This document shows positions 287-52,309 of a stretch of 64,000 bases of DNA, piece by piece. The stretch lies in assembly GCF_032191835.1 (NCBI RefSeq), contig NC_083229.1:43524001-43588000 (forward strand), given 5' to 3'. The number at the start of each line of letters is the position of its first letter. Position 1 is the first letter of the stretch. The position numbers were made by a program, and so were the translations under genes. The notes beneath the pieces were generated by a model. It saw only the letters and a list, made by a program, of their open reading frames with translations. It searched no databases and had not been told where the DNA came from. The stretch is from Heteronotia binoei (Eukaryota).

Positions 287-1809
287 TCAAGCCTTGTTGT
301 ATTTTGGCTCCCGGTCCTGCTTGTCTCTACGCTCTGGATTCTGCTTGTTGAATCTAGGATTATTGAACCCTTTTCTGAAGGGTTGTCTTGGTTGGTTCCA
401 GGATGATCTCTTGTTATCTGCATAGGATCTTGATCTGGCCAATGTGTGTGAGGAATGTAAGGACTGAGAATAGAAGCTTCTTCTGTCAGTTCTGCAAATG
501 TTCCTTGGCATGGCTTTCTTTTTGTCTTTGGTTTCCACTAAGATCTTATCTAAGGCACTACCAAAGAGCTTTTCTCCTTGAAACGGATACGATATCACGA
601 TTTGTTTGGAATGGTTGTCTGCAGGCCATGCTCTAAGCCAGATGCCTCTTCTGCCTACTGCCCCTGACGCCAGATCTCTGGAACAGAAGGTGAGGGCATC
701 TAGAGAAGCGTTGGCCGTGAACTCTGCTGCTTTAAGTAGTCTGGTGGTTCCCTCCATCAATTTCTTAATATTTTCTGGTAGCAATTGAGAGAGTCTCCTA
801 GCCGAGACTATGGCTGCTCTAGATAGACGATGCAGTACATGCCTTAATTACCACCTCGTGTGATCTTTTTAGGGCTAGGTCAATTTTCTTGTCCCAATTA
901 TCTCTAATGGAACTGTGCCTGTCTTCTGACACCAAACCCGGATTTTGAAGAGCCATCACTGGTGCATCCAGTGGTGCATCCAGTGGTGCATCCTGCATGC
1001 ACTGGTGCATCCTGCAACATTTCGTTTGCAAAAACAGGCAAATCATATAACTTTTTTACAAAGGCAGGAAACTGCCGATTAGAGTTAGGTTTTCCCCATT
1101 CAGCTTTTAATTGTCTCTCAAAGAATTGTGGAAATGGAAAAACCTTGGTAGTGGTGTGTGAGCCTGGGAAAAACTCCCTATCCCCAGTAGTTTTATTCCT
1201 GGGATTGGTATCAGTATTGCGATTCTCCTCCCCAGAGGCAGAATCTTGGAGCGCCAGTGCTGCCATGACCCTGGTTAACAAATACTGATAGTCATCAGCT
1301 TTAAAGCAGCGAACTGACTGCTCTGGGACACAGACATCCTCCACCTCCTCATCTGAAATAAAACTCTCTTGATCTTTGGATTGTGACTCTACATCCGGCT
1401 GATTCTCCTCTGAATCGTCCTCTAATAATCTAGAGTTAGAGATCTCTTTTCTGGCTGCCTTAGTTGGCCAGTTGCGCTCTATGGAAAGATTTTTCTCTGG
1501 GCGCTTTGAGGAGGAAGAAGGAGGGGAAGGAGATCTGGATCCCACTGACCCCATGCCCATAGCCCCTGATTGACAGGCATTAAACATTTCTGCTCTAATT
1601 GTTTGCTGGAGCATAGCCATAAATTCAATAGAAAATGGCCCTTTAGGGTACAGTACATTACCACTTTGTTGTATTAGGGCTGGGTCGACCGTGGAGGCGT
1701 GATCCGATAGGGGTTGGCTTCCTGTATTGTCTCCCACCGGGAGATTGGTAACTGTCCCAAGGGGCAAAGCATAAGACTCCTGGCACCTGTCTGGCGAAAC
1801 ACGCGCCAA
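287..1809 (-). pseudogene. DIRS gag-like ORF1, broken by frameshift and stops
   Basis: ORFs 904-1809, 819-1046 and 287-784 contain vertebrate DIRS gag-like motifs (FPFPQFFERQLKAEWGKP, DAPV..LQ..GLVSED, ASLDAL...RRGIWLRAW...YPFQGEKLFG). Confidence 0.8.
958..1013. repeat. 12-bp tandem repeat (a[c/g]tggtgcatcc) inside DIRS gag
   Basis: Four to five copies of ggtgcatcc are directly visible; they encode DAPL/DAPV repeats and coincide with the gag frameshift. Confidence 0.85.
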
Positions 1810-4364
1810 AAATCCTCCTTCAAAATGGCTGCTGTCAGATTCAAGCCTCTAGTGGGGAGGAACTTCAAGCCCTTCTGTTGAAGCCCCTGGACGTTTCACC
1901 CCACGGTGACTGAAGTCACTAAAACGGGCAACGTTGCCGGGAACCACAGCAAGCTGGGAAGACATGCTGGTCCCAGGGTCCACTCCTACAGCCTCAGTGC
2001 AAGGACTTATGGAGGGCGCATCTTCTAGGAACTCGTCCCTGAAATTTTCCATCCGCCGCTCTTTGCCACGCTTTGCAAGTGAAGGCAAGGAAAAAAAGTC
2101 AGCCCCTTTAAAAGCAGCCGCGGCCGCACCGCTCTCCCAACTACTGTGAAGGTGTGAAGGCAGATGGAAAGTGAAAGTAGCTCAGTGTAACAGACTGGAA
2201 CTTAAGAAGATTGTTAGAAAGAGAAGTAAAGTTGGGGGAAAAGGAAGAATTAGATTAGGAATAAAGAATAGGATTAAAATTGCTTCCTATCTTCTAGGAG
2301 CTAAACTAGCTAGTTGCTCTCCCTCTAGAGGCAGGAAAGAAACTGAAGAGATCTGGGTGCTCCAGGGTCAAGGAAGAGGAAGAAGAATTATTCTATTTCC
2401 TGCCTCCCTGACAAGATGGTGGAAAGCACCCAAGATGGCCTCCGACTCAGAGGGAGAATGGACAAGCCAGAGCTATCCAGACCAGGGCCTTGCCCTACCT
2501 AGGAAGGCTATTTTAGACTAGCTTCTGAGCATCTACACAGTGAAAATTAAATATTTATCTTCCCCACCTGTACACTTAAACAAACTATGTGTTGGGAGTG
2601 AAATATCATTTCACTATGCTATTGTTAATCTTCTTTCTACTTGTTTCCATGCTGCAGAATAGTAATGTGTATCACTGGTATACTGCATTTTTTTTTTAAT
2701 GATGGCTCTTGCCACTGGAAATTGTTACTCCTAGCCCAGGATTTTGTACCAGTTGATGAGGCTAATGATGCTTTTCACTTTAAGTTGCAGTATTAGGACT
2801 GGATTGAGCCTCAGTCTTCTGCCTATGCTAAACATATGCTATTTCAGTTTTTGTAATAATTAGCTTCTAGTTGAAACTTTGGTTCTGTTTCCCAGGAGGC
2901 TTTAGGACACTTCAGGTGACATGTCTTTGCTGGTACAGATAATGCTATACATGACATTTGGAATGTTTGCATACTATCAAATTCTGAACAGATAGAGTAT
3001 CAGAACCTAGCTTCCTGGGATTCTTTTAGTCAACCTTGACTCTCTGAGTCAACCTACTTAACTCTGTTTTCCTTGGCCTTCTTGACCCCAAGACATGACA
3101 GAGCTCAGCCCTTTCTCTCTCTGTCAGCTCATCACAGAGTTGATTGACAGTTACATTAGCTCTTATGGATGGGAAAAGGTATTTAATGTGTGAATGTATT
3201 CTTGTTTCTGGTTGTTCTGGTCAACCTCCCTGTGTTAAGGGACTTGGCAGAATAACCAAGATATATCCTTTATAAAGTCCCAGTACACTCTAATTGGATA
3301 TTTAAGTAATTTGATTAATCGTGTATGCTGCATACCAGATTCTTATATGTTTTAATTAATTTACAGCTGAGATTAAATAAATAAGAGGGGGGGTTAGAAC
3401 AGTTCTCTCTCTTTCTCGATGCAAACGGAAAACCAGCTTCTCTCCCTCCTCAAATGAATATAGTGGGGATGGAAATGCATGAAAAGGTTCCTGCACTTTT
3501 CATTTCCCTAACACTTTACATGTACAGCTCTTTTTAGACTTCTAGCAGAACCCCAAAGGCACTGAAGCCCACTGTACCTTTATCTAGGTTGAAACCTGCA
3601 TATCATTAATGAGTCACCATCACATGATTTATTTTTCAAGAGTCCACTTATCAACAGGAGAGCATCCAGAAACCTTATGCTGGTTTATTTCCACCCCCCC
3701 CCCCAAACAAAGAAGCAGGAAGTCATAATCATGAACAATGCACCTCATATATGCTGGGGTTTTTGTTGGTAATCTGTGAAAAATTCAGAGGCTCGAAAAG
3801 ATAGCAGTGAGTGACATAAGGGAATGAATAAAAACCAAAAGTGTGGTAATCGCAAGAAAATACAGGTGCAGCACTTGCTTACCAAAGTGATATTTCTAGC
3901 CTTAGATTAGGAAAGGGCCAGTCATGCATAAAATCATTGCCAAACCCACACAGGGAAAACAATTTTTTTTTTCCATCTTAAGTCTGTCAATCATTTTAAT
4001 CCTGTTTACAAAGGACATTTCTATAATCACCAAATTGATTTTAGCTGAAAATGTAGCTCTTTCCTAAATAGTCATGTGCTAATTATTAAACAAACTAAAA
4101 ATCAGTATGTGCAGCTTCTTTTAACTGATCGTCAGAATCAGTCTGTTGCTTGAATTGCTTCAAATTCTGTCTACTGGTTAGGGCAATGTACAGTGCAATT
4201 CTAAGCAGAGCTGAATTCAGTAGGCTTAGAAGGGTGTAACTTTGCTTAGGATTTCACATAAATTCTCCTTCCTCCACTCCCCGCACCCCAAGTAATTATG
4301 CTTGTGCATACCGGTAATATATTTTTGCAAGGTCCAACTGTATGATATATCTGGATGAGTTGGG

Positions 4365-8414: not shown

Positions 8415-9144
8415 CCAATAGTCTAGCCTTTCTCTCTTCCCTTCCTTCCACCCAGCTCAGCCACATTGTGCAAAGCAGAAGTTAGAGTGTTGCGTAGGTT
8501 TACCAGATGCCCTCTTTTTAGAGGACACATCCTCTTTTTCTGATGTCCTTCTTTTGGGCTCTTTTTTTAAAAAAAAATGATTAAATGTCCTCTTTTTGTG
8601 TTGAGGGGCTGAGCCTGTTTTGCCCTATAGTCTCCCAGTGAACAGGGCCGGGCCATCCATTAGGCAAACTAGACATCTGCCTAGAGTGCCAGCAGGGCAG
8701 GGAAATTCAGCTCTCCCTCCCCATGCCCTAGGCAAATCCCTCATTTGACTAAGCGCTTCACTCCCCAGCCTCCTCCTCCCTCCCTTCTCCACACCATTTC
8801 AATGTGGGAAGGAAGAAAAAAGATAAATGACAATATAATATTATAGTGCTTTAACACTATGATGCTATAGCAATTACTGAATTTTTTTTTTAAGAATAAG
8901 CTTTCAAAAAAGCCTACTGGTGATGTGGCATGAAAAAATACTGTAAAAATTGTACCCATGAAAGGCTGATGGCAGGAAAGTTGCAGTAATGTGTATGGAA
9001 TCTTTGCAGCACAGCACAATGCAAACCATTCTTTCTAGATAGTGTATTAATTTGTTTGGACTGTGTTTGGGAAGGATTGTACTGAGGATGGGAAACCTTG
9101 GAAACAGAACAGTTACAAAAATCTCCAAAAATCACTCCAATGTG

Positions 9145-10725
9145 AGGAGGAATAGGGACGTCCATGTTAAATCAAGATTTGATGAGGAGATAAGTCCCAC
9201 CTTCCTGGCTCCCTCCCGGCTCCCCCCTCCCAACTACCAGGGACTGTCAAGGGTGGAGCCATCCCCCAGGGCCTGGAGAGGGGGCTGCTGGGAAGGAGGA
9301 GGAGGCAATATGGCTACTGTTGTTTTTTTATTAGGTGAAAAATTATTTGGTGCAAACTTTATTTTTGGGGGGAGCTGTGCTTTTGTACAGGAGGGGTTTT
9401 GGAAAGTGTGCTTTTGTACGTTGTGGGGAAAATGCTTGGGTGCTTTGAAAACTGTATTTGAAAAGGACTGAAATAACAAATTCCTGGAGATTCTCCTGGT
9501 CTCTCCTGGAGAATGTTTTGCCAGGAGTTCTCTCTTCCTGCAAGTCCCAGGGCTTTCCTCACAAGGAACAGTGCCCTTTTTAAAAAGCAAAGCAGCTGCA
9601 TGTTTTTTTCTGTGATAGAGTTCTCTTTTTGCAAGGAACAGACACCATTTATTTTTAAAGCCTGCACAAAAGCTGAGAGAGACAGCTTTTACCAAGAGAA
9701 ATCCCCCACCCCCTTCCCACTGCCAGCCACAGTCAGCAAACTTTAATCATGCAAGCTCACGTTTCCCTCACACAAGCAGCCCCGAAGACTGCGAAGCCCA
9801 AGAGCAAAAAGTTTTCAGCATGCAAACAGAGTTTTAAGCAATAAAACAAAGTTTAACCATTCTAAACATGCTAAGACAGAGAGAGAGAGGAAAATGATTT
9901 TAGCATACAGTGTTTCAAGTCCCTTTAGAACAGAAGTCCCTTCTGTTAGAACAGAGGGAGAAAGAGACAGAGAGACATCCCCATTGCCCCTACAGCCAGC
10001 CATAGATTGCTAGAGTCATTTTAAAATACAGACACAGACACACAGTTTCCTTCAGAGCTTTAGCACATCCCAGGAAAAAAGCCCCTTCAGCTTCCTAAAG
10101 CAGCAGACCTACTTCCCTGAAAGAGAGAGAGCCCCAGAGAAAGACACACACACACACAGAATGCAATTGCTTACTAACCACAGCTTTTAAAAAGCAAAAA
10201 TGGCTTTTAAAACACAGCCACATTTTTTCCTCCTTGAGATGTGTATTGGAAGGCAGGCAGTGAGCTACTGACTAACAGAGTCAGTTGAACAGCAAATGCC
10301 AGCTGAGGATGGGACTAGACAAGCGGGGCTCCAATCAACAGCTTGCCAGACAGAATTTACCCTGGCTGGAAAGATGGTTCTAGCCATTCAGGAAGTAGGA
10401 AATCACATGGTCCTTTTCAGCCAATGGCAGCTACATCCTTCAGCCAGCATTTCTAATGCTGAAGAGGAATCCTCCCCCTCTCCCTTCATTTGCTGCTGTC
10501 TCTGACTTGTTAAAATAAAAAGCACACAAACTTTATAAATAATAATAAGACAATGGATTTGTATTCTGCCCAACACACAGCTCACAGTCTCCTATAGCGT
10601 CCTCCCATACAACAAACATTCTGTGAGGCAGGTGGGTGTGAGAGAACTCTTTTAAAAGCAGTGCTTTCAAGGACAAGCTCTGTGATAGCCACGACAGCCC
10701 TGACAGGTAGGCTTAGGGGGAGGAG
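9145..10725 (+). repeat. Maverick left terminal inverted repeat (about 1.6 kb)
   Basis: Aligns by eye in blocks with the reverse complement of 20284-21730, e.g. 9560-9690 vs 21190-21320 and 10490-10725 vs 20284-20535. The inner boundary is approximate. Confidence 0.88.
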
Positions 10726-10755
10726 TTGGGGAATCAAACCAAAAATGGGCTCTGA
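10535..10755 (-). mobile_element. Squam3-like SINE remnant embedded in left TIR
   Basis: cccatacaacaaacattctgtgaggcaggtggg...tttcaaggacaagctct...ggggaatcaaacc matches the free SINE copies at 24730-25012 and 59985-60237. Confidence 0.75.
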
Positions 10756-11009
10756 ATGAAACAATTAAAAAAACACACGTTTCACAATTTTAAAAGTTTG
10801 CATAGTGGCTGCTAGGGTGCTTTTTAAAAATAAAAATTAAAGTCTGCATAGAGCTGTGTGGAAAACAGAGCAGGCACAGGGCCGTCTTGGACTGCATAGA
10901 TAAGAATGGGGGGGGGGGGGCAACCACGAGGCTAAAAGGGGGCTTTCAGACAGTTGCATTTTAAACAAGCCTGCAGTTTTCCAGGATTTCTGTGCAACAA
11001 AATTTCAGC

Positions 11010-11761
11010 ATGGATCCCCCAAAGCAGCAGCTCTTTAAGGTGGGTGTCATGCCCATGTTTCAAAATTTTAAATGCAAATGGGTGCCAGATTTCTTTTATT
11101 TCTCAGTCCACTTATATTTTCTGTCTACAGAAAATCACATTGTCTATGCCACAGGACCATTCCTGCTCTCTGCAGAAGACCTATACGTCGCTGAGAATGA
11201 GAGTATGTGCAATGTTGCCATCTTCCAGGCAGAATCAGGAGATCTCCAGTTTTCCTGGAGAAAAAGGGTAGACTTTATGGCATAGGGTTTTTTGATGAGT
11301 TCAAAGGATTAATTTCCTTTCTTTTAACAGTTGAAATGCCAATTTCAGTAGACAGTGCCAGTACCCAGCACGTGGCTTCTATACCTGGCACAGCTGACCA
11401 GCAAGTGACTGTCTGGCCTATTCCAGAACCAGCTGTGAAACATGGTAAGATTCTTAAACAGTTTGGCCATTGTGGGGGTAAAGCCTCATAGGTTATTTTT
11501 AACACAATTGTGGCACTTTTATGCAGAGGTGTTTTTTTTTTTTAAATGAGGAGAATGGGACAAGCAGGGACCTCTAGGCAGACCCTGGAGATCTCCAGTT
11601 TCTCTGGAGAAAAAGGGTAGACTCTATCGCTTTGGGTTCAAAGGATTAATTTCCTTTCTTTTTAACAGTGGAAATGTCAATTTCAGGGTGTAGTGGCAGT
11701 CCCCAGCAATTGGCTTCTATTGTGACAGCCTGGTCTGTTCCAGAACCAGCTGTGGAACCTG
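11010..11761 (+). other. putative spliced gene of unknown function inside the Maverick (exons about 11009-11039/43, 11131-11202, 11331-11444, 11669-11761), truncated by copia
   Basis: Three internal exons have polypyrimidine-ag acceptors and gtatgt/gtaaga donors. Their lengths are 72, 114 and 93 nt, all multiples of 3 and all open in phase 1. Exons 3 and 4 are tandem duplicates. Confidence 0.6.
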
Positions 11762-12164
11762 GTAAGATTTTTAAAAGTTCTTAAACATTTTGGCCATGTT
11801 TTGGGTAAATAGCCAATTTTTAACACAATTCTTGTACTTTTATGTTCTTGTGTGTCTGGTGCAACCTAAGGAGTCAGCCAAAATGCAGGGGGCAAAAATG
11901 CAGGAGAGGAATAAATTAATTTTAGTTAAGAACAGATATGCTGGATGAGGCCTGCATTCTATGTCACATAGTGGGGCCAGGATACTGGCTCCAGAGCAAA
12001 CTCCACATGTTTCTACAATCCCCTTTTGAAGCCTGCCACCACCTCCTGCAGCAGTGAATTCCACAGGTCATTGACTTCTTGTGAGAATGGGAAAAAAGTA
12101 CGTCTTTCTACATCCTGCCACCCCCAGGCTGCGTTTATCCAAGTTATAAAGTCTTTTTTTCATG

Positions 12165-14760
12165 GTGTGATGACTAGGCATCTGGGGCATGCGAGTTTCA
12201 ACACAATAAATAAGACCTTGGCTATCCTAACAGGGGAGATACATATTTCGATTGTAAGATATGCGAACAAGCTAAGTCTAAAGCCTATCCTGTAGCAAAA
12301 AGGAGTAACAGGCTCTCTGAGAGGCCATTGCAGTTAATACACGCAGATGTTATTGGCCCCTACCCCCCTAGCATGTCTAAAAATAAGTTTGCCTTAATAC
12401 TGGTCGACGATAAAAGTCGTTTTGCATGGGTATATGCTATGAAAAATAAATCTGAGGTGTTTACCACATTTAAATACTGGGCAAACAGAGTGCAAAAGCA
12501 TCTGAATTGCAAAATTGGTGCTTTGCAAACCGACATTGGGGCGGGGGGGGGGGATTTATTGGACATCAGTTCAAGTCCTGGCTGAGTGAACAGGGGATTG
12601 AGCATAGAATTGCAAATGTGTCAGCACCAGCTGAAAATGGGGTGGCTGAACGAAAAGGGGGCATACTTCAAACTATGCTCCATGCTATGCTCAAGGATAG
12701 TGACCTGAAAATCACATACTGGTGTGAGGCACTAAAAACCTCATGCTTTGTTGTAAACAGACTATGGACACAGGCCATAAATGAGATACCCTATAAAGTG
12801 TTATATGGTAAAAATCCAAGTCTAGAGTTCTTGAGAATTTTTGGCACAAAAGCCTAGGTCAACATACTGGTGAATAAAAGGAGAAAGGGTGGAGCCAGAG
12901 CTAAGAAATTATTATTTCTGAGCTACCAGAACAGTATGAAATCTTATAGGTTTGCAGACAAGCATAACATGCTAAGCTTTAGTAGCTCTGCATCGTTTTG
13001 TGAGGATCAAAATTGGCAAAGGGTTCATGCGAATGAAATGCCTACAACTGCAGTGTTACCTCTATCTCAGCAGGTTGAGGAGGGGAGTGTAACTATAAAG
13101 CAAGAAGCATCCTCACCAAGAGCAAGACAGAGGTCACAGTCCTCTGAAAGTTCAGAGAGTGCAAAACAGGAAATAAGAGTGTCTAGCAGAGTCAATAAAG
13201 GCGTGCCTCCAGAGAGGAACGGGTTTAGTACGGCTATAAACTATGTGTATTCTAAAGAGCCACAAAACTATGAAGAAGTGCTAGCTTTAGACCGTGAGGA
13301 ACAGGATGGTTGGCTGAGTGCAATGCAGAAAGAATCTGACTCACTGAAAGAAAACAATGTATTCACACCTGCGGTTCTACCAGTGGGTAAAACAGTCATC
13401 AGCTGTAAGTGGCTGTATAAACTGAAACGACTGACTGATGGGTCTTTACAGAAAAAGGCGAGGCTGGTAGCTAGAGGGTTTACAAAGCTAGAGGGCAGAG
13501 ATTTTGACGAAAGTTTTGCACCTACTGTAAGAATTGAAACACTGAAAGCAACGCTGTGTAAAGCAGGTGTGAGTGGCATGACAGTACATCATTTTGATGT
13601 TACAACCGCATATTTAAATGCCACCATAAAGGAGGAATTATATCTACAGCCAATTCCTGGGTTCCTTAATACAAATGATTTGCCTGTCCTAAAAATAAAC
13701 AGAGCCTTGTATGGTCTTAGGCAGTCAGCAAATGAATGGAACAAATGTTTAAGTAAAGCACTGGAGAGTATAGGATTTAATCAAAGTGTGGCTGACCTTT
13801 GTTTATTCAGTCATGAAGTATATGGACAAGAATGTTACATTTTATTCCATGTAGATAATTTGTGTTTCCTATGTAAAAGCAATAAGCAACTTGAGTGGTT
13901 TGTGAAAGAAGCTCAAGCTCTGTTTAAAATCAAACACTTGGGGGAGATACAGCACTATCTCGGCATGGAGATTATTAAGAGTGCAGAAGGCCATTACCAA
14001 TTAAGCCAGGAAGAGAAAATTCAAAAGCTCTTAAAAAATGTATGGGATGTCTGAGTCAAAGGTCGTGCAGAGACCTATGACAACTGGTTATATAAAAGAA
14101 GAGGATGATACTGTTCTAGAAAATAAACAAATGTATCAGTCCTTAGTGGGATCACTATTATATTTGGCATGCTGGACCAGACCCGATATTTGTATGGCCA
14201 TACATCTGCTAAGTCAAAAATGTGCAGAGCCAAGGCAAGGGGACTGGATTGCAGCCAAACGGGTCCTTAGGTACCTGAAAGGTACAGCAGGACACAAATT
14301 AATGAGCACTGACAGTGAACAAGTGCTAATGGCTGACAGTGATGCAAGTTGGGGGGAAAGACCAGACGGGAGGTCTACCTCTGGAAGTGCAATATTCATG
14401 TATGGTGCACTAATTAGTTGGAAAGCGCTGAAACAAACGCATATTTCAATGAGTAGCTGTGAAGCAGAATACTCTGCAATAAGTGATACTATCATCCAAA
14501 TTGAATGGTTAAGACAGCTAATGAGGGATCTGGGAATACAAGTTCCAACACCGGTGGAGGTGTATTGTGATAGCACGGCTGCTCAGCATCTAGCAGTTGA
14601 CAGTGGAATAAAAAGCAGGAGTAAGCACATAAATATCCATTACCAAAATGTTAGAGAAGCTGTAAATAAATCTTGTGGTAATGTGGCAGATGTATTTACA
14701 AAGAATGTAGCAGTGGACAGATTCTTAAAGCTGAGAGAAATGTTGAAGCTAGTGGTCTGA
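12165..14760 (+). pseudogene. copia pol (integrase-RT-RNase H), frameshifted
   Basis: LIHADVIGP...LVDDKSRF, ENGVAERK, KWLYKLK...KARLVARGF, HHFDVTTAYLNA, ALYGLRQSANEW, HVDN (canonical YVDD altered), RPDI, DSDASW...STSG, SSCEAEY, YCDSTAA, RSKHINI. Confidence 0.93.
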
Positions 14761-14774
14761 GACATGAGGAGGGG

Positions 14775-15133
14775 TGTCAGAGTATACAGTCATCAGACCA
14801 CAGCTAGAGCTGCAATGATCTACATGACAGTAGATGATCTAACTGACAGTGGACAGCTGGCAGTCCTCCAGATTGCATCAGCTAGGATGATGTAAGGGGA
14901 AAGAGTATAATGACTCAGCACTAAGCTGATTGGATAATGAACTGTGCTGAACTGTATAAATGTAATGTAGCCCAGTGCTACATGTGGTGGATGGATGGTG
15001 GTTGTATATGCGGAGCACTTTGTTAGTCTGTGTAAATATCTGTAAATAAATAGTGTATATAGTTTGCCTAACCGCAGCTGTGTGCAGACTTTATTCCTTC
15101 AAGTCTCAAGCGACCACACACTAAACACCAACA
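14775..15133 (+). repeat. copia 3' LTR (359 bp) preceded by polypurine tract GAGGAGGGG (14766-14774)
   Basis: TGTCAG start immediately after the PPT and CCAACA end. TATAAA and an AATAAA-like signal lie inside. Confidence 0.8.
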
Positions 15134-17940
15134 ATAAACAGTCACACAGAGGAGGGTGACTATGTTCAATTGAGGCTTGAGGGAGGAGGACTACAAAATC
15201 CCATATTTTCATTTTAAAAAAGAAAAAATCCGCTAATTGCTTCTGAGTTTCTGGACTTTGTAGTTATTATGCTCCAAAGTAACAGGGAGGTTCTGAACAA
15301 TGATACTCTGTGTTTAATCGTGACCATATCCAAATCTCCCAGGGGTGGTGCACATCAGAAAATGTCTAAAACCACCATGAAAAAGTCTATTCCTTACAGT
15401 TTAATCATTGAAAAAAAGAGGCGCTTTCTGGTAGATTATACCTATTATGACAACAACCTCTGTTTTGCGGCGGGGCTCATGGGTGTTATGAAAAGAGGAG
15501 AAAGTCCTACTGATGCAGAAGTCTTAGAGGCCACTAAGAAATTACACGCTGATCAGAAACAAGTGGGTCTCAATGACATATCAGTTGTTGAGGAGCATTT
15601 AAAAGTGAACATCCGGGTGGTGCTGTGTTCAGAGAATGGGTGGAACATATTTAAAACACAGTCCCTGAAATATCCTGAGACCCATTTTATGCTTTTGTAT
15701 CAAGATCATTATCTCGGCGTATTGAATGTTAAGTCTTTTACAGGATCTAGGGGTTTTTACAGGAATTGGCACACCCTGTACAATCATAAGCACAATTGTT
15801 CTTTATTTTGCAGAATGTGTGGAACCTCTGAATGTAAAAACATCAGCGGTACCCCTCAGAAATGTCCCAACTGCTATTTCTACTGTAGCAAAGAATTTTG
15901 CTTAAAACTACACGGGAAGCTGGCAGCCAAGGATGAAATTCCCTGTCCCTCCAGGGTTTGATGTAAAAAATGCTAGTCTTATGTCAACATGAACCACCAA
16001 TATAGAGTGCAGGAAGAGGGTCTGCAGACAATGTTGTGGGGCGCTGGAGGAAGGTGAAGATTTTCATGACATGTGTTACTTAGAGCCTCTGAAAGAGCCA
16101 CCTGTTTCAGCAAAGTACATATTTTATGATTTTGAATGTACTCAAGATGGTGGAGAGCATAAGCCCAACTATGTTTTTGCTAAAGCTTTTGACCAAGACA
16201 AAGAATAGCACATAGCCGGTCAAAGTTGGGAATTTAAGGGTGAAACGTGTGTGTATGAGTTTGTGAAGACAATTACTTCCATGAAGCAGTTTAGAGAAAC
16301 GACGTTTATTATTCATAACTCCAAGGCCTACAATTCTTTATCGTTAAGCAGCTGATTGAAGAGAGGATGGATCCCAAGCTAGTTGCCATAGGGGGAAAGC
16401 TGATGTGTGTGAGTATAAAAACCCTGGACATAAAGTTCATCGACTCTCTGAACCACCTCCCCATGGCCCTCTTTAAGCTACCGAAAGCGCTAGGATTTTC
16501 CCAGAGTAAAGGGTATTTTCCTCATTTTTTCAACACTGAGGAAAATCAGGCTTATGTGGGACCTTTACCAGAGCCCAAATACTATGGGGTAGACCAGATG
16601 ATGCCCAAAGAAAGGGAAGATTTCTTAAAATGGCATGAGGAAAACTGCTTTAATATCCTTGATCTCCAAAAAGAACCAGCTTTTTATTGCCAGCAAGATG
16701 TGAACATTTTGGAACAAGCTTGCACTTTATACCGTTCTGAGATTATGAACATGACATCTCAGGACACTCTCTCCATAGATCCCCTATAATATCTTACGCT
16801 AGCGGGGGTCTGTTTAGCCATGTACAGGTTTAATTTTCTGCAGCCTCTCTCTGTGGCCATTCCCCCTCCTGATGGTTATGACAGGCAAACCAAGAGGTTT
16901 TCATCTTCTTCAATTCAGTGGCTCTGCTACTTAGAGCACTCTGAAAAGATCCATATTCACCATGCACTGAAGGGGGGTGAGTTTAAGGTGGGGAAGTATT
17001 CCCTAGATGGGTATGCAGTGGTGGATGGTAAAAGAACAGCCTTCAAATTTATCGGTTGCTTCTGGCATGACTGCACCCAATGCTATGATCCTTTCAAAAT
17101 CAACAGGGCAACTGGGAAACCATTTCAATACCTTTACTCCACCACCAGGCAGAGGAGTAATGACCTTAAAAGAATGGGGTTTGAAGTCAGGAGCATCTGG
17201 GAACATGAGTGGAATCACCTAAAAAACACAGATGAGTCTGTGAAAACCTTTCTTAAATTAGCTCAGTTTCCTGAGCCTCTGGTTCCTAGAGATGCCCTGT
17301 TTGGGGGGCGCACTAACACCATTACCCTCTACTACAAAGTGGAGGAAGGGGAGGAGATCCACTACTACGATTTCACCAGCCTGTACCCCTTTGTGAATGC
17401 TAGGAAAACATACCCTCTAGGCCACTCCGAGATCATCCAGAATAATTTTGCGCCTCTGACAGAATATTTTAGATTGGCTAACATCAAAGTCTATCCCCCG
17501 AGAGGACTTTTCTACCCAGTGTTGCCTTCCAAAGTGGATGGGAAACTGTTTTTTACATTGTGCAGGACCTGTGCCGAAACAAAACAGCAGGAAACCTGCA
17601 CCCATACCGATGAGGAGAGGTCTCTAGTGGGCACGTGGGTTACAGCAGAATTGCAGAGGGCGGTGGACAGAGGTTATCCAATTGTGAAAATCTTCAAGGT
17701 CTGGCATTTCAAGAACAAATCCAATCAGTTGTTTGTGAAATACATTAAAAGACATTTTAGACAGAAACAGGAATCTTCAGGATACCCTGACTGGTGTGTG
17801 ACAGAGGCTAATAAAGAGCAATACATTGCAGATTTTTATAAAGGGGGGGGGGTTTCCTTCTCCGCCCGAGCATGTACACCCCCACTCGCAAAGCGTCAGA
17901 TCGCTAAACTGTTTCTCAATTCTCTGTGGAGTAAATTTGA
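15134..17940 (+). pseudogene. Maverick protein-primed DNA polymerase B (pPolB), disrupted and truncated at both ends
   Basis: N-terminal LQSN...PRGG region, Cys-rich segment, ExoI FYDFEC, IHNSKAY, KFIDSLNHLPMAL, KGYFPHFFN, ExoIII YCQQDVNIL, Vsr-like FIGCFWH..IWEHEW, PRDALFGGRT, motif A YDFTSLYP, motif B KLFLNSLW. Motif C (YxDTDS) is absent. Confidence 0.93.
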
Positions 17941-18023
17941 AATCCAGGGAGAGCATAACCAGCCTGAGAATGGTAATAACTTCTAAACATTGCGGGGTCC
18001 TCATAATCTTTCACAATCACCAT
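17937..18023 (-). pseudogene. N-terminal stub of small Maverick core-protein-like ORF
   Basis: MVIVKDYEDPAMFRSYYHSQAGYALPGFQ has the YYxxQxG..G motif of the small ORF that follows penton in Mavericks/adintoviruses. It is cut by the deletion junction. Confidence 0.55.
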
Positions 18024-18711
18024 TTTTTCCACGGTCGTAAGTGCAACCTTACGATGACCTTGCCGTAATGGAATGACACGTGTTGGTTCTGTGCAGATCG
18101 TTTCAATATGCTGCTTGTTGACGGGAATGTGGTGGGGCTCATCATAGATGACTGTGATAAAATCGTGAGTTTTCCCTCTTATTGGGACACAGTGCAGAAG
18201 GGGCGCTGCAGTGTCCCCTACCAGCTGGTGTTCTATGATATCCATATATAGGTACAGAGAATTAAATCCTTTGGTAATATCCGTGGCATGGTGAATGTTT
18301 TTGAGTGGGGTGTTAAGGGGCGTCCCCAGCAGCAGCGCTACTTGGTCACGCATAATGAAGTGTGTAACATTCAGGCTGACAAATCTAGTTTTCCCTGATG
18401 TTTGGTCATAAAGGAAACGCACATCGAGTGGTGTATCGGGATGTTTCCGTACAGCTGTGTGCATGGTATCTAATATATGGCAAACGTCTTCATAATAACC
18501 ATGCTTCACTTGGAATTCATTTCTAGTAGTCTTGGTGCAGATTTGGAAATCTGAGGCTTACTGATAGTGTACCAGGTGTAGGGGTACTGAATTTCCACCA
18601 ACCCCACTTCCCCTTCAAATCCAAAGGTTTAAACAAGCACACTGTGAAAGCTGAACTGGTATTTTCAGGAAATAGGTCCTTAGAAGCGTTGTAAAACCCA
18701 TCATCATCCAT
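18017..18711 (-). pseudogene. Maverick PZ / minor capsid (penton)-like gene, frameshifted
   Basis: MDDDGFY..NASKDLFPENTSSAFTV.L.KPLDLKGKW / LVEIQYPYTW / KHGYY / SLYLYMDIIEHQLVGDTAAPLL / VSFHYGKVIVRLHLRP, joined across frames. Confidence 0.8.
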
Positions 18712-19830
18712 CCCGTCCACTAATGTCTTCAGCGGGAACCCAGCTGTTAAATTTGGGTGGCCACCCCCTCCACTTCACTAAGAACTGCTTCTGTTTCTTG
18801 TTTGTTCGGGTTTTTATAATTTTCTCTATTTTGTATGTTCTGTCTTTCCAGCGAGTCACTTTTTGCAACGCCTCTGGATAAAACCCTCCCAGGATCGGTT
18901 CACCATCAAAATCTGCCAGGTGGTGCATGGGCCTCTTGCCCCTTCCGCCCACCTTTTCTATAATAAAGATTTCTTTGGTGAAATTCTGTTCATAACCTTT
19001 CTCAAAAGTTCCCTTTGTTCTAGAAACCCTCACACGGTCCCCTTTTCTAAATAAAACTCTTGTTTCTTTTTTGGGGGGGCCCCAGGACTGCACCGTACAC
19101 CCGTCTCCACACAGTAAGCATGTTAGAGGGCTTGACATCAACAGGCCGTGCCTGAATAGTTTTGTGATAGCTGTGGTTATAGCTCTTGACCAGGTCCTGC
19201 AACACATCCATATACTTAAAAGTGTTATTGGCGGTAAAAATACCTCCACATCTTGGTCTTTAAAGTTCTGTTAAATCTCTCCACCACAGAGGCCTTAACT
19301 TCATTGTTGGTGACAAAATGGTGAACTCTATGCTGTTTTAACAGGGCAGCCATTTTTTTTCAGAAACTCTTTGCCCCTGTCCATTTGTAGCTTTTGAGGG
19401 ACCCTCTCTGACCCCCTAAAAATGCTTTTAAAAGCGGATGCCACCTCTGCCCCTCCTTTACTTTTAGAGGCACAGCCCATGTGTATTTAGACAGGATGTC
19501 TATCACCGTTAGAATGTATTTGTAGCCCCTGTTGTACTTGGAATACTCCTTCATATCAACGAGGTCCCCTTGCCATTGTTCATCAAAATCACCCACAATT
19601 ACCTTGTTTCTTTTGAAATGCACCCTGGCCGGTTTATGCAGGGCATAAGCATCTTGATCATTCAGCCACTCTTTCACCTCTCTTCTGCTCAAACTGTGCC
19701 CCCTCTTAGAGGCGGCCTGAAAGAGAGCTTCGATGCCCCCAAAGCTTCCAGCCTCTCCAGGGGTATAATAAATCTCATTTAAAATATCCCAGGTGTGAGC
19801 TATGACACTTTGGTCTCTTTTGCTACAATG
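18704..19830 (-). pseudogene. Maverick retroviral-like c-integrase with C-terminal chromodomain, frameshifted
   Basis: EIYY..G.AGSFGG, QDAYALHKPAR, QWQGDLVDM...YKYILTVIDILSKY.WAVPLK, FRKGDRVRVS...FEKGYEQNFT.EIF, YKIEKII...FLVKWRGWPPKFNSWVPAEDI. Confidence 0.92.
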
Positions 19831-19887
19831 AGAGTATTTTTATTAGAATGTCAATATACAGATAACAGAGAAACCCCCCCCCCCCCT

Positions 19888-20120
19888 TCACTCTGGCTTT
19901 TTCTGGTTTTCATCCTCTGACTCCTTTGCCTGCACAGACTGTATTTCTTCATGACCTTTCACGACCGTGGGCCCATCTGTCTCCACAGGGATCATTTTTT
20001 CACCAACTGCTTCTTCTATGCACAGAACCCAACAGCAATAGAAGAGCTGAACACTTTCCTCTTTCATTTTTACCGGGGGCTGCAGATTCATTGGCACACT
20101 TAAATGTTTCTGGGACACTC
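19888..20120 (-). other. possible acidic ORF / terminal exon(s) between right TIR and integrase
   Basis: The open frame ends EEAVGEK...QAKESEDENQKKPE*. Acceptor ttctgtgcatag at 20016. AATAAA on the minus strand at 19839-19844. Confidence 0.4.
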
Positions 20121-20283
20121 CTGAGAAGACCAGGTGCACCTAGGTCTATCTTGCAGGGTCTGACCCCAAAGATTTTTTTTACTGAATTTTAAAAACATGC
20201 TGTTTTTCATTAAGCCCCACACAACTGTGAGTTTTCAGGTTTGGGGATACCCCCCAGCACCCTAAAAACAATACCACAAGGTT

Positions 20284-20490
20284 CTTCTCCCCCTGAGCCT
20301 ACCTGCCAGGGTTGTTGTGGCTATCATAGAGCTTGTCCTTGAAAGGACTGCTTTTAGGAGAGCTCTCTCACACCCACCTGCCTCACAGAGTGTTTGTTGT
20401 GGGGGAAGACACTATGGGAGACTGTGAGCCACTCTTAGACTCTGTGTGGTGGGCACAATATAAATCCATTGTCTTATTATTGTTTATAAA
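20284..20490 (+). mobile_element. Squam3-like SINE remnant embedded in right TIR
   Basis: Mirror image of 10535-10725 (ttgtccttgaaaggactgc...cccacctgcctcacagagtgtttgttgtggggg...tataaatcca). Confidence 0.75.
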
Positions 20491-21730
20491 GTTTGTGTGC
20501 TTTTTATTTTAACAAGTCAGAGACAGCAGCAAACAAAGGGGGTGGGGTTCTATGCAAGAAAAATGCAGGCTGAAGGGTAGCTCCCATAGGGTGAAAAGGA
20601 TCATGTGATTCCCTGCTTTCTGATTGGCTAAAGCTTCTTTCCAGTTGTTAGATGTGAGTAAAGTCCGTCTGGTAAGCAACTCTGATTGGCCCCTGGCTTC
20701 ATAGTCACCTCCATGGCTGTAGCGGGGTGTTCAACTTACTCTGTTAGAGTCAGTAGCTCCCTGCCTGCCTGGGATATGCATTGCTCAAAGGAAATTCATT
20801 TAGGAAAAAAGTGTCTGTTTTGAAAGTTGTTTTGTTTTTTAAAAGTGGGCCTGGTAAATTTCTCTACTTTTAGGAACGGGACATGCTTAATGCTTAAACT
20901 TTGCTCTGTCTGTGAGAGGGGGGAAGAGAGGATCTCTCTCCCCCTGCTTTTAGGAAGCTGAAGCGGAACAGCGGGGCTTTGGGTGGACTTTCAGCTTTCC
21001 TGGTGTGCATAGCTCATTCTCTGAAGGAAACCGTGTGTCTATGTCTCTGCTTAAACTGCATGGCTGCTGCTTAAACTTTTAAAAGGACACTCTTCCTTAC
21101 AAGGGTTTATGGATTATTTTCTTACCCATCTGTGTCTGCTTGCTGGGGGCTTGTTTTTGCTGTCTGTGGCTGGCAGTGGGAAGGGGGGGGTAAAAGCTGT
21201 CTCTCTCAGCTTTTGTGCAGGCTTTAAAAAATAAATGGTGTCTGTTCCTTGCAAAAAAAGAACTCTCCCACAGGAAAACATGCATCTGCTTTGCTTTTTA
21301 AAAATGATACTGTTCCTTGTGGAAGAACCGCTTATCATGGCTGCTGGAAGCCCCTGCAAATTTTCTCCAGGTGAAGCCTGGAGAATCTCCAGGAATTTGT
21401 GGTTTCAGCTCCCTCCTTTTCAAATAGTACTGCAAAAATATTTCAAAAGCACAAGTCTGCACCCAAGCATTTCCCCTGTATAATAAACCTTTTCATTTTC
21501 CAATGCCCCACTGTACAAATGCACAGCATATAAAAAAATACAGTTTGCACCAAACAATTTCTGTATTAAAAACAACAGTAGCCATATTGCCTTCTTCCCA
21601 GAAGTCCAGCCCCAGGGGGATGGCTCCACCCCTGACAGTTCCAGGTGGGAAGGGGGAGCCAGGAAGGCGGGACTTCCAGTCAGACCCATCAAATCTTTGA
21701 TTTGACATGTGGTAGCCCCCTATTCCTCCT
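20284..21730 (-). repeat. Maverick right terminal inverted repeat (about 1.45 kb)
   Basis: Reverse complement of the left TIR, with substitutions and indels. Confidence 0.88.
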
Positions 21731-49625: not shown

Positions 49626-50576
49626 ATGGTACCCAATAATGGGGGGTGGGATTCATGCTAGAGCAGAATGTAGATTTATGTAGCAAGCGCAACAGAGTTG
49701 TGGTACTATCCAAAGCAGCAATTGAAATCAGTGGGCTTAGAAGGGTATAAGTCTGCTTAGGATGGCAATGTTTGAGATGTAGAGCAAACGTTGCCATTGT
49801 AGCTTGTGTAGCAACTGAAATTACAAGCCTGGAGGACTGCCAGGAACATAATGGGACTTCTAGAATTTATAGTCAGTCTGGGTATCATAAAGATAGTTGG
49901 TTCCACTCTGGACTGAAGCTAGGAAAAGATTTACATCTTTTTTGGACTGTGACAGTTTCATTCTGTGCAAGCTTTTAAATAACTCTAAATTTCTGTTGTT
50001 TGAAAATATACATACACTTACATCAGGGGTCCCCTTTAAGGTCCTCAAGGACACCATGCCACCCTCTGACATCTTTGCTGGTGCCCATCAAGTGTTTCTA
50101 GAAAGTGGGTGGAACATTTACCCAGTAGGATTCCTGACTGGTTACTAGAGATCTGATTGGCCAGGCAGATTAAAATATTTCAGCAGTAGCTGCCACCACA
50201 ATGTTGGTTTTATTCTCTCTCACACAAGTGTTTATTTTTTAAAACTGTCCCTCTCCCTGCCCTGCACGTAGGCTTCCTCTTTGTGTGTGGCTGCACTTCC
50301 TGCGGCAACAATTTTGTGGCTATGCCTACCATTCTATGTTAGAATTCCAAAAGTGCCTGTGGGCTCAAAAAATTATCAACAGTTGTCAAATGAAACTGTC
50401 TGTATTACTTTACCCATTTTTTGTCTTGAAATGTTGCTGTTCAAATGTTGTTGTTCAAGTGGTCCTTCTTCAAGTGGGCCAAATTGGAATGATCTTTGCA
50501 GAAGATATTTAGCTACAGAGAAATTAATTAGGATATTGCGTACAGAATGGCATAAGCTTTTTTCATCTTCCTACAG

Positions 50577-50700
50577 TAGACGCATCATTAATCTTGGTCC
50601 AGTTATGCTGATTCCAGAGGAGCAACCAGCACAACCGGCAATACCTGTTCAGCCAGAAGGCACTAGAGTGGTGTGTGGACACTGTGGAAATACATTCTTG
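50577..50700 (+). CDS. PIP4P2: PIP4P2 coding exon 4
   Basis: RRIINLGPVMLIPEEQPAQPAIPVQPEGTRVVCGHCGNTFL; 124 nt. Confidence 0.97.
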
Positions 50701-52309
50701 GTAAGAATAGCCAACAGGCTCCATGCAAAGGACCAAACTTCCTCCTTTTCTAAATGAGCCCTGCAGCTATTGAAAAGTCAGAAATAGCTATGAAGAGGCA
50801 TTTGTGTGGGCCAGAGCTCTTCTCTCAAGTACTAGCTTTGAGTTCCTAAGATATTCAATCCAGGTTTCAGTTTTCTTTTTTAAATAATCACTTCCAGAGT
50901 TGGTCCTGAGGTACAGAGTTGCTCACGCCACATACGTTTGGTCCAAGTTTATAATAAAAATGTGTTTCGTCTAAGAATCTGGGTTTTGTCTGACACAGTT
51001 CACATGATAGTTAAGATTCCATTTGTTTCCCTAAAATTATCCCATGCTTTTATAGTTTCTGATAACCTTCTTCAGTCATTGAGGCTAATCTCTTGGAAAA
51101 GTACAACAGACAAGACGGGTCTGATGGGATGATCTTGATAAAGGAACTGCAGGTCTGGTTTCAACCAGAAACTGTGCTTTCCTTATCTTATAACTGACCT
51201 CATAGTTTCAGTGGGAAATTAAATAAACTGTTGTCAAGCCAAGAAACTAAAAAGAGATGGGCAAGAAAGTGGATAAAGGGCTTAGTGTAAATGAAGTTGA
51301 AGATGAGAAACTCTTAATTCTAATGGGTACCTCAATATTTATGCAGCTCATCAAAGTTCTCCTTACCCCAAATATGAAAGATATGATCACTTCCTCTTCA
51401 TATATTCCAGTTTAACTGTAGTAGAAAAAAATTATATAATTACAATATACAAGACTGATAACTGACCCGTGTTTTCTGAATTTCGCTGAGTCTTATGTCT
51501 TTATTTAGATTTTTCCCATTTAAAAATCTATATGGAGTTATGAATTTTGGCTATTGAACACAGTTTGTTTCACCAGCTTGTCTGGACAGCTCCATTGTTG
51601 CATTTCATACAAAGGTTTATGTCTGCTGATACTTACAGTATTTCCCTTGGAGTCTGTGGGATTGTTCTGGATAAGAGTTTTAAGGACTGAAGCCCAGTAT
51701 GGCCAGATGGGGCTATTTCAATTTAGTGAGCCACCTCCCTCTCCATAAGAGCAAAGCCAAGAAGAGCCTTCTTATGCAGCCCAACATGGATGGATCTGAG
51801 GCAGCACTGTGGCAAAAAAAAGTGGAGCCAAGATGGTGCTGGTGTACTCTTGGCACTGTTATGGATGCAGATTTATACCCAAGCTTTTTTGATCTGACTC
51901 ATTCTTTCTTCCCTTCCTGTCCCTCCTCTCTTTCCCAAAGATAACAACCGCTGTTCTCAGTTTATCTTAATTAAACCAGCTCTATCATCACAGGGATACG
52001 TTGACTAGGAGTACTGCTGAATATTATGTATCTGTGGGGCAGGATCTAAAGAGGTGCATCCAAAAGACTAGTACAAATGGAATATTTTAGTTTTTCTTTG
52101 AGCAGCATGTCCATGCCCAAAACACCTTTTGTGTTTTGAAAATCCAAATGTGAAACCTGCTTGGATACATAAAACCTGATTATGAACCAGATGGGATGGG
52201 GTAAAAAGCAAGAAATTCAAGCTAATCCTTTCAAGTAGTAAATTAGCTTAGAAATAGTCTTGATATTACCAAGACCCTGCATATGAATTGAAGGAAATTC
52301 AGTCAATCT

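Follow-up and report, generated by a model that had tools for sequence, protein, structure and literature searches.

Vertebrate Mavericks, or Polintons, are described in the available text of Barreat & Katzourakis 2021 (PMC8097293) as elements with TIRs, a 6-bp target duplication and (AGT)2-type ends, in which the protein-primed DNA polymerase (pPolB) and the integrase lie on opposite strands and point inward, accessory regions flank the core, and the core genes are stated to have no introns. As far as the accessible portions of the sources go, the pPolB of alpha adintoviruses and polintons has the domain order TP-vOTU-EXO-PALM (PMC8502044; 10.1101/2024.03.18.585575). Introns are found in nematode Mavericks, where the available text (10.1101/2022.07.12.499685) places them in separate, host-derived cargo (wasp, krma) and calls the core genes intronless, and dinoflagellate polinton-like elements contain introners, according to the part of PMC12166617 that was accessible. 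Adenoviruses make pTP and Ad-pol from spliced E2B mRNAs with short 5' exons, the pTP ORF being derived from two exons (PMC11304566, available text).

In this study, we analysed a window of 64,000 nucleotides from Heteronotia binoei (contig NC_083229.1, positions 43,524,001 to 43,588,000, forward strand; coordinates below refer to the window) that holds a decayed Maverick with a set of small exons. These are very probably the 5' coding exons of this Maverick's pPolB gene, spliced to the long exon that follows. Like the vertebrate Mavericks of PMC8097293, the family has TIRs, a 6-bp target duplication and, outside the window copy, ends of the (AGT)2 type, with pPolB and integrase on opposite, inward-pointing strands; unlike the intronless core ORFs described there, its pPolB is preceded by conserved splice sites, and a spliced pPolB leader conflicts with the 'no introns' statement in the available text of that paper. 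The element shares with nematode Maverick cargo the presence of spliceosomal introns inside a Maverick, beside the TIR, and differs in that the introns lie in a core gene (10.1101/2022.07.12.499685, as available). It is like adenovirus E2B in that a related virus group likewise relies on spliced mRNAs for its replication proteins, whereas in adenovirus TP and polymerase are separate proteins and here a single fused protein has a multi-exon leader of variable copy number; homology between the leaders is not claimed (PMC11304566, available text). We found no description of a spliced pPolB leader in the available texts of the literature searched.

The Maverick in the window

The element spans 9145-21730 and comprises TIRs, pPolB fragments and an integrase. 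The left TIR (9145..10725, + strand) and the right TIR (20284..21730, - strand) match each other at 72-78%. The left side of the 6-bp target duplication lies just outside the left TIR (9139-9144), the flanking hexamers agreeing at 5 of 6 letters, and the end motif AGTAGT occurs at 5 of 10 ends aligned, with a variant at both ends in the window. The long pPolB exon survives as a remnant (15134..17938, + strand) with stops, a frameshift and a cut 3' end, which covers the rest of the TP-like domain, the vOTU-like domain and the exonuclease/polymerase. It matches DNA_pol_B_2 (Pfam E 1e-19 and 3e-8) and residues 303-1238 of gecko pPolB at 61-71%, and the nearest named polymerases are those of a gecko (62-64% over the query). 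On the opposite strand lies a broken integrase with a chromodomain (18704..19839, - strand; Chromo E 1.5e-14), whose rve match (E 5e-4) is under the curated cut-off. Long TIRs, the 6-bp duplication with the end motif, a protein-primed PolB and a retroviral-like integrase, the features of Maverick membership, are present. Capsid proteins, ATPase and protease gave no Pfam match in the 19 of 35 window ORFs scanned, and the window copy is internally deleted. A spliced integrase on this other arm of the Maverick was considered and rejected: the other close copies lack the AG of its apparent acceptor, which the window alone has, and the ORF upstream of it ends in its own stop.

The small exons follow the left TIR on the + strand: a start exon with an ATG (11010..11039, 30 nt), exon 2 (11131..11202, 72 nt) and two units of a repeat exon (11331..11444, 114 nt, and 11669..11761, 93 nt), the last three in phase 1-1. 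The sequence-only reading had proposed these three exons, and the acceptors, donors, lengths and stop-free phase 1 that it gave are all confirmed, as is its candidate start ATG at 11010 with GT at 11040 and 11044. The 30-nt start exon has a strong donor in phase 0 and is thus out of phase, so the window copy is broken at this exon. The direct duplication seen earlier is real, with limits that we refine to 11224-11523 versus 11573-11844 (71% over 311 columns, E 5e-48).

The 5' part of the last leader intron follows (11762..12174, + strand), its 3' end and acceptor missing in the window copy. That the 3' part of the gene was lost at a copia junction holds true, but this junction lies at ~12175 and not at 11840, since family DNA continues to ~12174. 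The copia LTR-retrotransposon remnant (12175..15133, start approximate, + strand; RVT_2 E 1e-50) has a single LTR-like end in the window (14770-15130) and no target duplication, so its 5' part was removed by a deletion that also took Maverick DNA. In other copies, the match to the window extends as far as 12174 and resumes at 15134; in between they carry ~790-1000 nt (intron end, acceptor and start of the long exon) that are absent here. Because the window copy lost the long-exon acceptor at the copia insertion, the link of the small exons to pPolB is hidden in it; the copy is dead and cannot make the leader-pPolB product.

Exon anatomy among family copies

A genome search returned at least 32 matches, from which 20 stretches were fetched. 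The tabulated set consists of 17 other loci and the window (18 in all); three divergent stretches (L038-L040) form a divergent subfamily that was treated apart, outside the exon, acceptor, identity and dN/dS counts, and L030, a near-duplicate of L028, was excluded from the dN/dS and identity figures. A spliced, phase-1, exon-duplicating coding sequence, as postulated from the window alone, is borne out and is carried by the whole Maverick family: the same exon borders and splice sites recur in 13-16 of the 17 other loci, which is more than chance.

The start exon is present in 14 of 18 copies, each time with a GT; it is 40 nt long and in phase 1 in 7 of these 14, and in phase 1 in 9 of 14. Exon 2, likewise present in 14 of 18, measures 72 nt (n=9), 108 nt (n=4) or 88 nt (n=1), a multiple of three in all but one copy, and has its AG in 14, its GT in 13 and a stop-free frame in 12. 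The repeat exon occurs as one or two units per copy; 18 of 23 complete units are multiples of three (93, 96, 114 in 13 cases and 204 in three), and three more units are interrupted. Its sites were located by motif, and AG/GT counts for the repeat exon are therefore biased. Exon 2 and the repeat exon show length changes of 36 and 90 nt that are shared among copies, and intron lengths are spread over all phases. The uniform phase 1 means that exon duplication, in-frame growth (by 36 or 90 nt) and exon skipping can be tolerated. In the divergent subfamily, one copy retains the same borders and phase, with a first exon of 40 nt and, at only 71-74% identity, an open exon 2 of 108 nt.

In three copies (L033, L034 and L036), one and the same internal deletion leaves the sequence into the TP region 125 nt short, and in two of them both TIRs lie within ~8 kb. 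These copies represent a non-autonomous subfamily in which the repeat exon and the acceptor have been retained.

The long pPolB exon and RNA evidence

A further exon does follow in the family. The donor of the repeat exon (that of unit 2 in the window's numbering) faces the acceptor of the long pPolB exon in 13 of the 17 other loci, where the stretch missing from the window contains a pyrimidine tract and an acceptor, with YAG intact in 11 of 13. Past this acceptor the phase-1 frame is the pPolB frame, and in two copies (L024 and L027) it stays open as far as the TP-like domain apart from one or two isolated stops. The exons thus run into the pPolB reading frame, and the earlier statement that their peptide belongs to none of the core genes does not stand. 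Over their whole length, the first 100 residues of the long exon can be aligned to the N-termini of gecko pPolBs (E 0.002 and 0.006) at 17-18% identity. Only 4 of 9 decayed copies preserve an acceptor-to-TP distance divisible by three, and G-runs and repeats account for most of the shifts. Copies L023-L030 carry a variable-number acidic/proline repeat of ~22 codons (long exon codons ~105-190) in the part that links the long helix to the TP-like domain, and its G-runs hold most of the frameshifts. Viral contigs searched with P0005 gave no locus.

A single RNA run (X1) contained words of the region (share 0.04). Its contigs showed no joints on the window itself, as expected of a window that lacks the start of the long exon. 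Compared with L028, a single contig out of 243 (202 nt, depth 2.66) omits exactly the 873 nt that separate the repeat-exon donor at 2639 and the long-exon acceptor at 3513, with GT..AG borders that had been predicted before the RNA comparison; it has 42 nt on its short side, and the sequence between its two sides is not known. This contig differs from L028 at 18 of 134 letters (~87% identical) and so comes from another copy, with one repeat unit or skipping one. Junction evidence was thus obtained for the last intron in the form of one spliced contig, and no X1 joint was seen for introns 1-3; the upstream junctions are inferred. Stretches that the RNA did not cover were given no weight. Several X1 contigs cross exon-intron borders unspliced, and the library may contain DNA; the exact pattern of an intron-less DNA form had no match in G000, which is a weak control. 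Two more L028 joints (CC..AC and AC..AG) are non-canonical and were read as deletions between copies. The conserved splice sites before pPolB and the spliced RNA joint challenge the premise, adopted in the sequence-only reading, that core genes are intronless.

Selection and alternative readings

Values of dN/dS were calculated pairwise among copies and are diluted by post-insertion decay, and the pairs are not independent. For exons 1+2 the ratio is 0.37 (codon bootstrap 0.20-0.71) in the predicted frame, against 0.74 and 1.40 in the other frames; exon 2 alone gives 0.40 and two pPolB controls give 0.40 and 0.49. The constraint on exons 1+2 resembles that on the polymerase core. The expectation of purifying selection holds for these exons and fails for the repeat exon, with a ratio of 0.96 (0.52-1.8), no amino-acid constraint and one non-coding frame lower (0.53). 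In the long exon, the ratio is 0.93 over the first 42 codons and 0.72 (0.49-1.09) over the first 100. DNA identity is 0.86-0.89 in exons and 0.88-0.92 in introns, and exons are not above introns. Together, these figures suggest that the frame and the splice sites are kept while most of the sequence of the tail is free.

A repeat-exon ratio near 1 and exons that are no better conserved than introns would also be expected if the exons were spliced into a mainly untranslated or dispensable 5' leader that is open in phase by accident, the start of pPolB being a Met in the long exon or at the end of the intron. In 8 of 13 copies codon 43 of the long exon is indeed a Met, 4 of 13 have an in-frame ATG in the intron before the acceptor, and the turtle and cavefish adintovirus PolB records (P0162, P0172) start without such a leader, so that a leader may not be universal. 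We nevertheless regard an untranslated leader as improbable: exons 1+2 are constrained in the predicted frame only, exon 2 and the complete repeat exons are multiples of three in 13 of 14 and 18 of 23 cases, the divergent subfamily retains lengths of 40 and 108 together with the phase, and the models of relatives translate their leaders. A separate accessory or captured host gene with its own last exon and stop, lying merely upstream of an intronless pPolB, can draw on the intron-bearing cargo beside the TIR in nematode Mavericks (10.1101/2022.07.12.499685, available text), on the accessory regions that flank the core in vertebrate elements (PMC8097293, available text) and on leader peptides that match no relative's leader, but is highly improbable and largely refuted, as the RNA joint enters the pPolB frame directly, no other terminal exon was seen between repeat exon and long exon among the aligned copies listed, no host homolog was found, none of five leader peptides matched a Pfam family, and the start of the long exon matched none of 14 candidates among longer proteins (a weak test).

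Relatives and protein architecture

The reading of the small exons as the spliced start of pPolB can be compared with relatives, since RefSeq models include pPolBs with long N-terminal extensions. One locus of Paroedura picta gives a pPolB that begins with 9 residues of its own, along with two isoforms that begin with host EphB1 instead, joined at two different points (P0008, P0004 versus P0007); at another, the isoform pair P0006/P0009 lies one residue apart at the start of the long exon. The Hemicordylus pPolB varies among isoforms by the skipping of 17 residues, by a 2-residue variant immediately ahead of the matching point and by an ending that reads through, and the Anolis pPolB has a 109-residue read-through isoform that diverges at one point. 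These isoform differences in gecko, girdled lizard and anole point to exon borders of spliced N-termini, the borders in other lizards being deduced from protein isoforms; the RefSeq records concerned include XP_077198782, XP_077205233-6, XP_053121212-7 and XP_062828202. The small exons had no detectable sequence likeness to the leaders of relatives (best E 0.13); judged from the sequences, the layout of the leader is common to the relatives and its letters are not.

In the three models P0004, P0007 and P0008, the 5' part of host EphB1 is joined to a Maverick pPolB of 1,480 residues that has no interruptions, which suggests that a young element lies within an intron of EphB1. Similar host-pPolB cases may exist in fish, to judge from the model names mcf2lb and Sulf-2.

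Like the alpha adintovirus/polinton pPolB with TP-vOTU-EXO-PALM order (PMC8502044; 10.1101/2024.03.18.585575, available texts), the protein has a PF03175 polymerase after two globular domains. Here these are preceded by an N-terminal extension of 250-300 residues ahead of the TP-like domain, made up of a probably spliced, predicted disordered tail, a basic motif, a long helix and an acidic linker; neither such an extension nor splicing is discussed in the available texts on alpha adintovirus pPolB. The AlphaFold model of the first 509 residues of a gecko relative shows pLDDT <50 at residues 15-103, a helix at 125-191, a linker and two confident globular domains. The top Foldseek matches of the second domain are OTU domains, with probability 0.99 but E 5e-3, and the vOTU positions C406 and H493 are invariant in 30 relatives, with matching motifs visible in the window ORF; by this best fold match and its invariant Cys and His, the second domain may correspond to the vOTU domain of alpha-type OTU-pPolB as described in the available texts. 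The modelled domain order of the gecko relative is in line with the TP-vOTU order of 10.1101/2024.03.18.585575, as far as its available text goes.

In 12 of 13 copies, codons 15-33 of the long exon encode a basic motif, KR-x(10-12)-KK, and a like motif is found in 6 of 11 relatives scanned. It resembles a bipartite nuclear localisation signal, with a putative role in import. In 10 of 13 copies the motif is upstream of the first Met of the long exon, so splicing is likely what brings it into the protein. We propose that transcription would begin within the left TIR or close to it, that the host would splice the transcript to join the ATG exon, exon 2, one or two repeat exons and the long pPolB exon, and that translation from the exon-1 ATG would yield an enzyme with a predicted disordered N-terminal tail ahead of the NLS-like motif. 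The repeat exon would probably serve as a spacer of free length that may be duplicated, lengthened or skipped without a frame shift. In the 4 of 13 copies with an intronic in-frame ATG splicing could be bypassed, and an unspliced start is likewise possible in two copies with a Met before the basic motif.

Implications

The gene model of a key replication enzyme of a virus-like element is corrected by this reading. ORF-based surveys would miss the true pPolB start along with the likely nuclear-import motif, and a criterion that equates intact elements with intronless ORFs may class lizard elements wrongly. A need for the host spliceosome implies nuclear Pol II transcription, and junction reads offer a simple RNA marker of when Mavericks are expressed. 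The findings also show one way in which a viral polymerase is captured by host transcripts. A much more tentative proposal, which we think rather unlikely as a whole, is that the phase-1 modular leader is old and widespread in animal Maverick polymerase genes, that its splicing acts as a switch for a nuclear-targeted TP-vOTU-polymerase, that the same acceptors yield host-polymerase chimeras (EphB1, Paroedura), and that adenovirus E2B, with its spliced start, is prefigured in this arrangement.

Other sequences in the element and the window

A piece of the last leader intron (window ~12025-12075; L028 ~3216-3400) is present family-wide and draws very deep RNA contigs with unrelated flanks; it is likely an abundant host-repeat fragment that an active ancestor acquired and that its intron could tolerate. 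A small, unnamed accessory ORF of ~59 codons (19888-20067, - strand), situated between integrase and right TIR, has a Cys-Cys-Trp stretch and an acidic tail and is recognisable in 8 of 8 aligned sequences, truncated in one of them and with an altered start in one. Elsewhere in the window, 287-847 (- strand) has a Pfam LAP2alpha match (E 3e-7), a domain that often belongs to DIRS-type retroelements, and 50272-50757 (+ strand) matches Tmemb_55A (E 1.5e-10) and is likely an exon of a host PIP4P gene.
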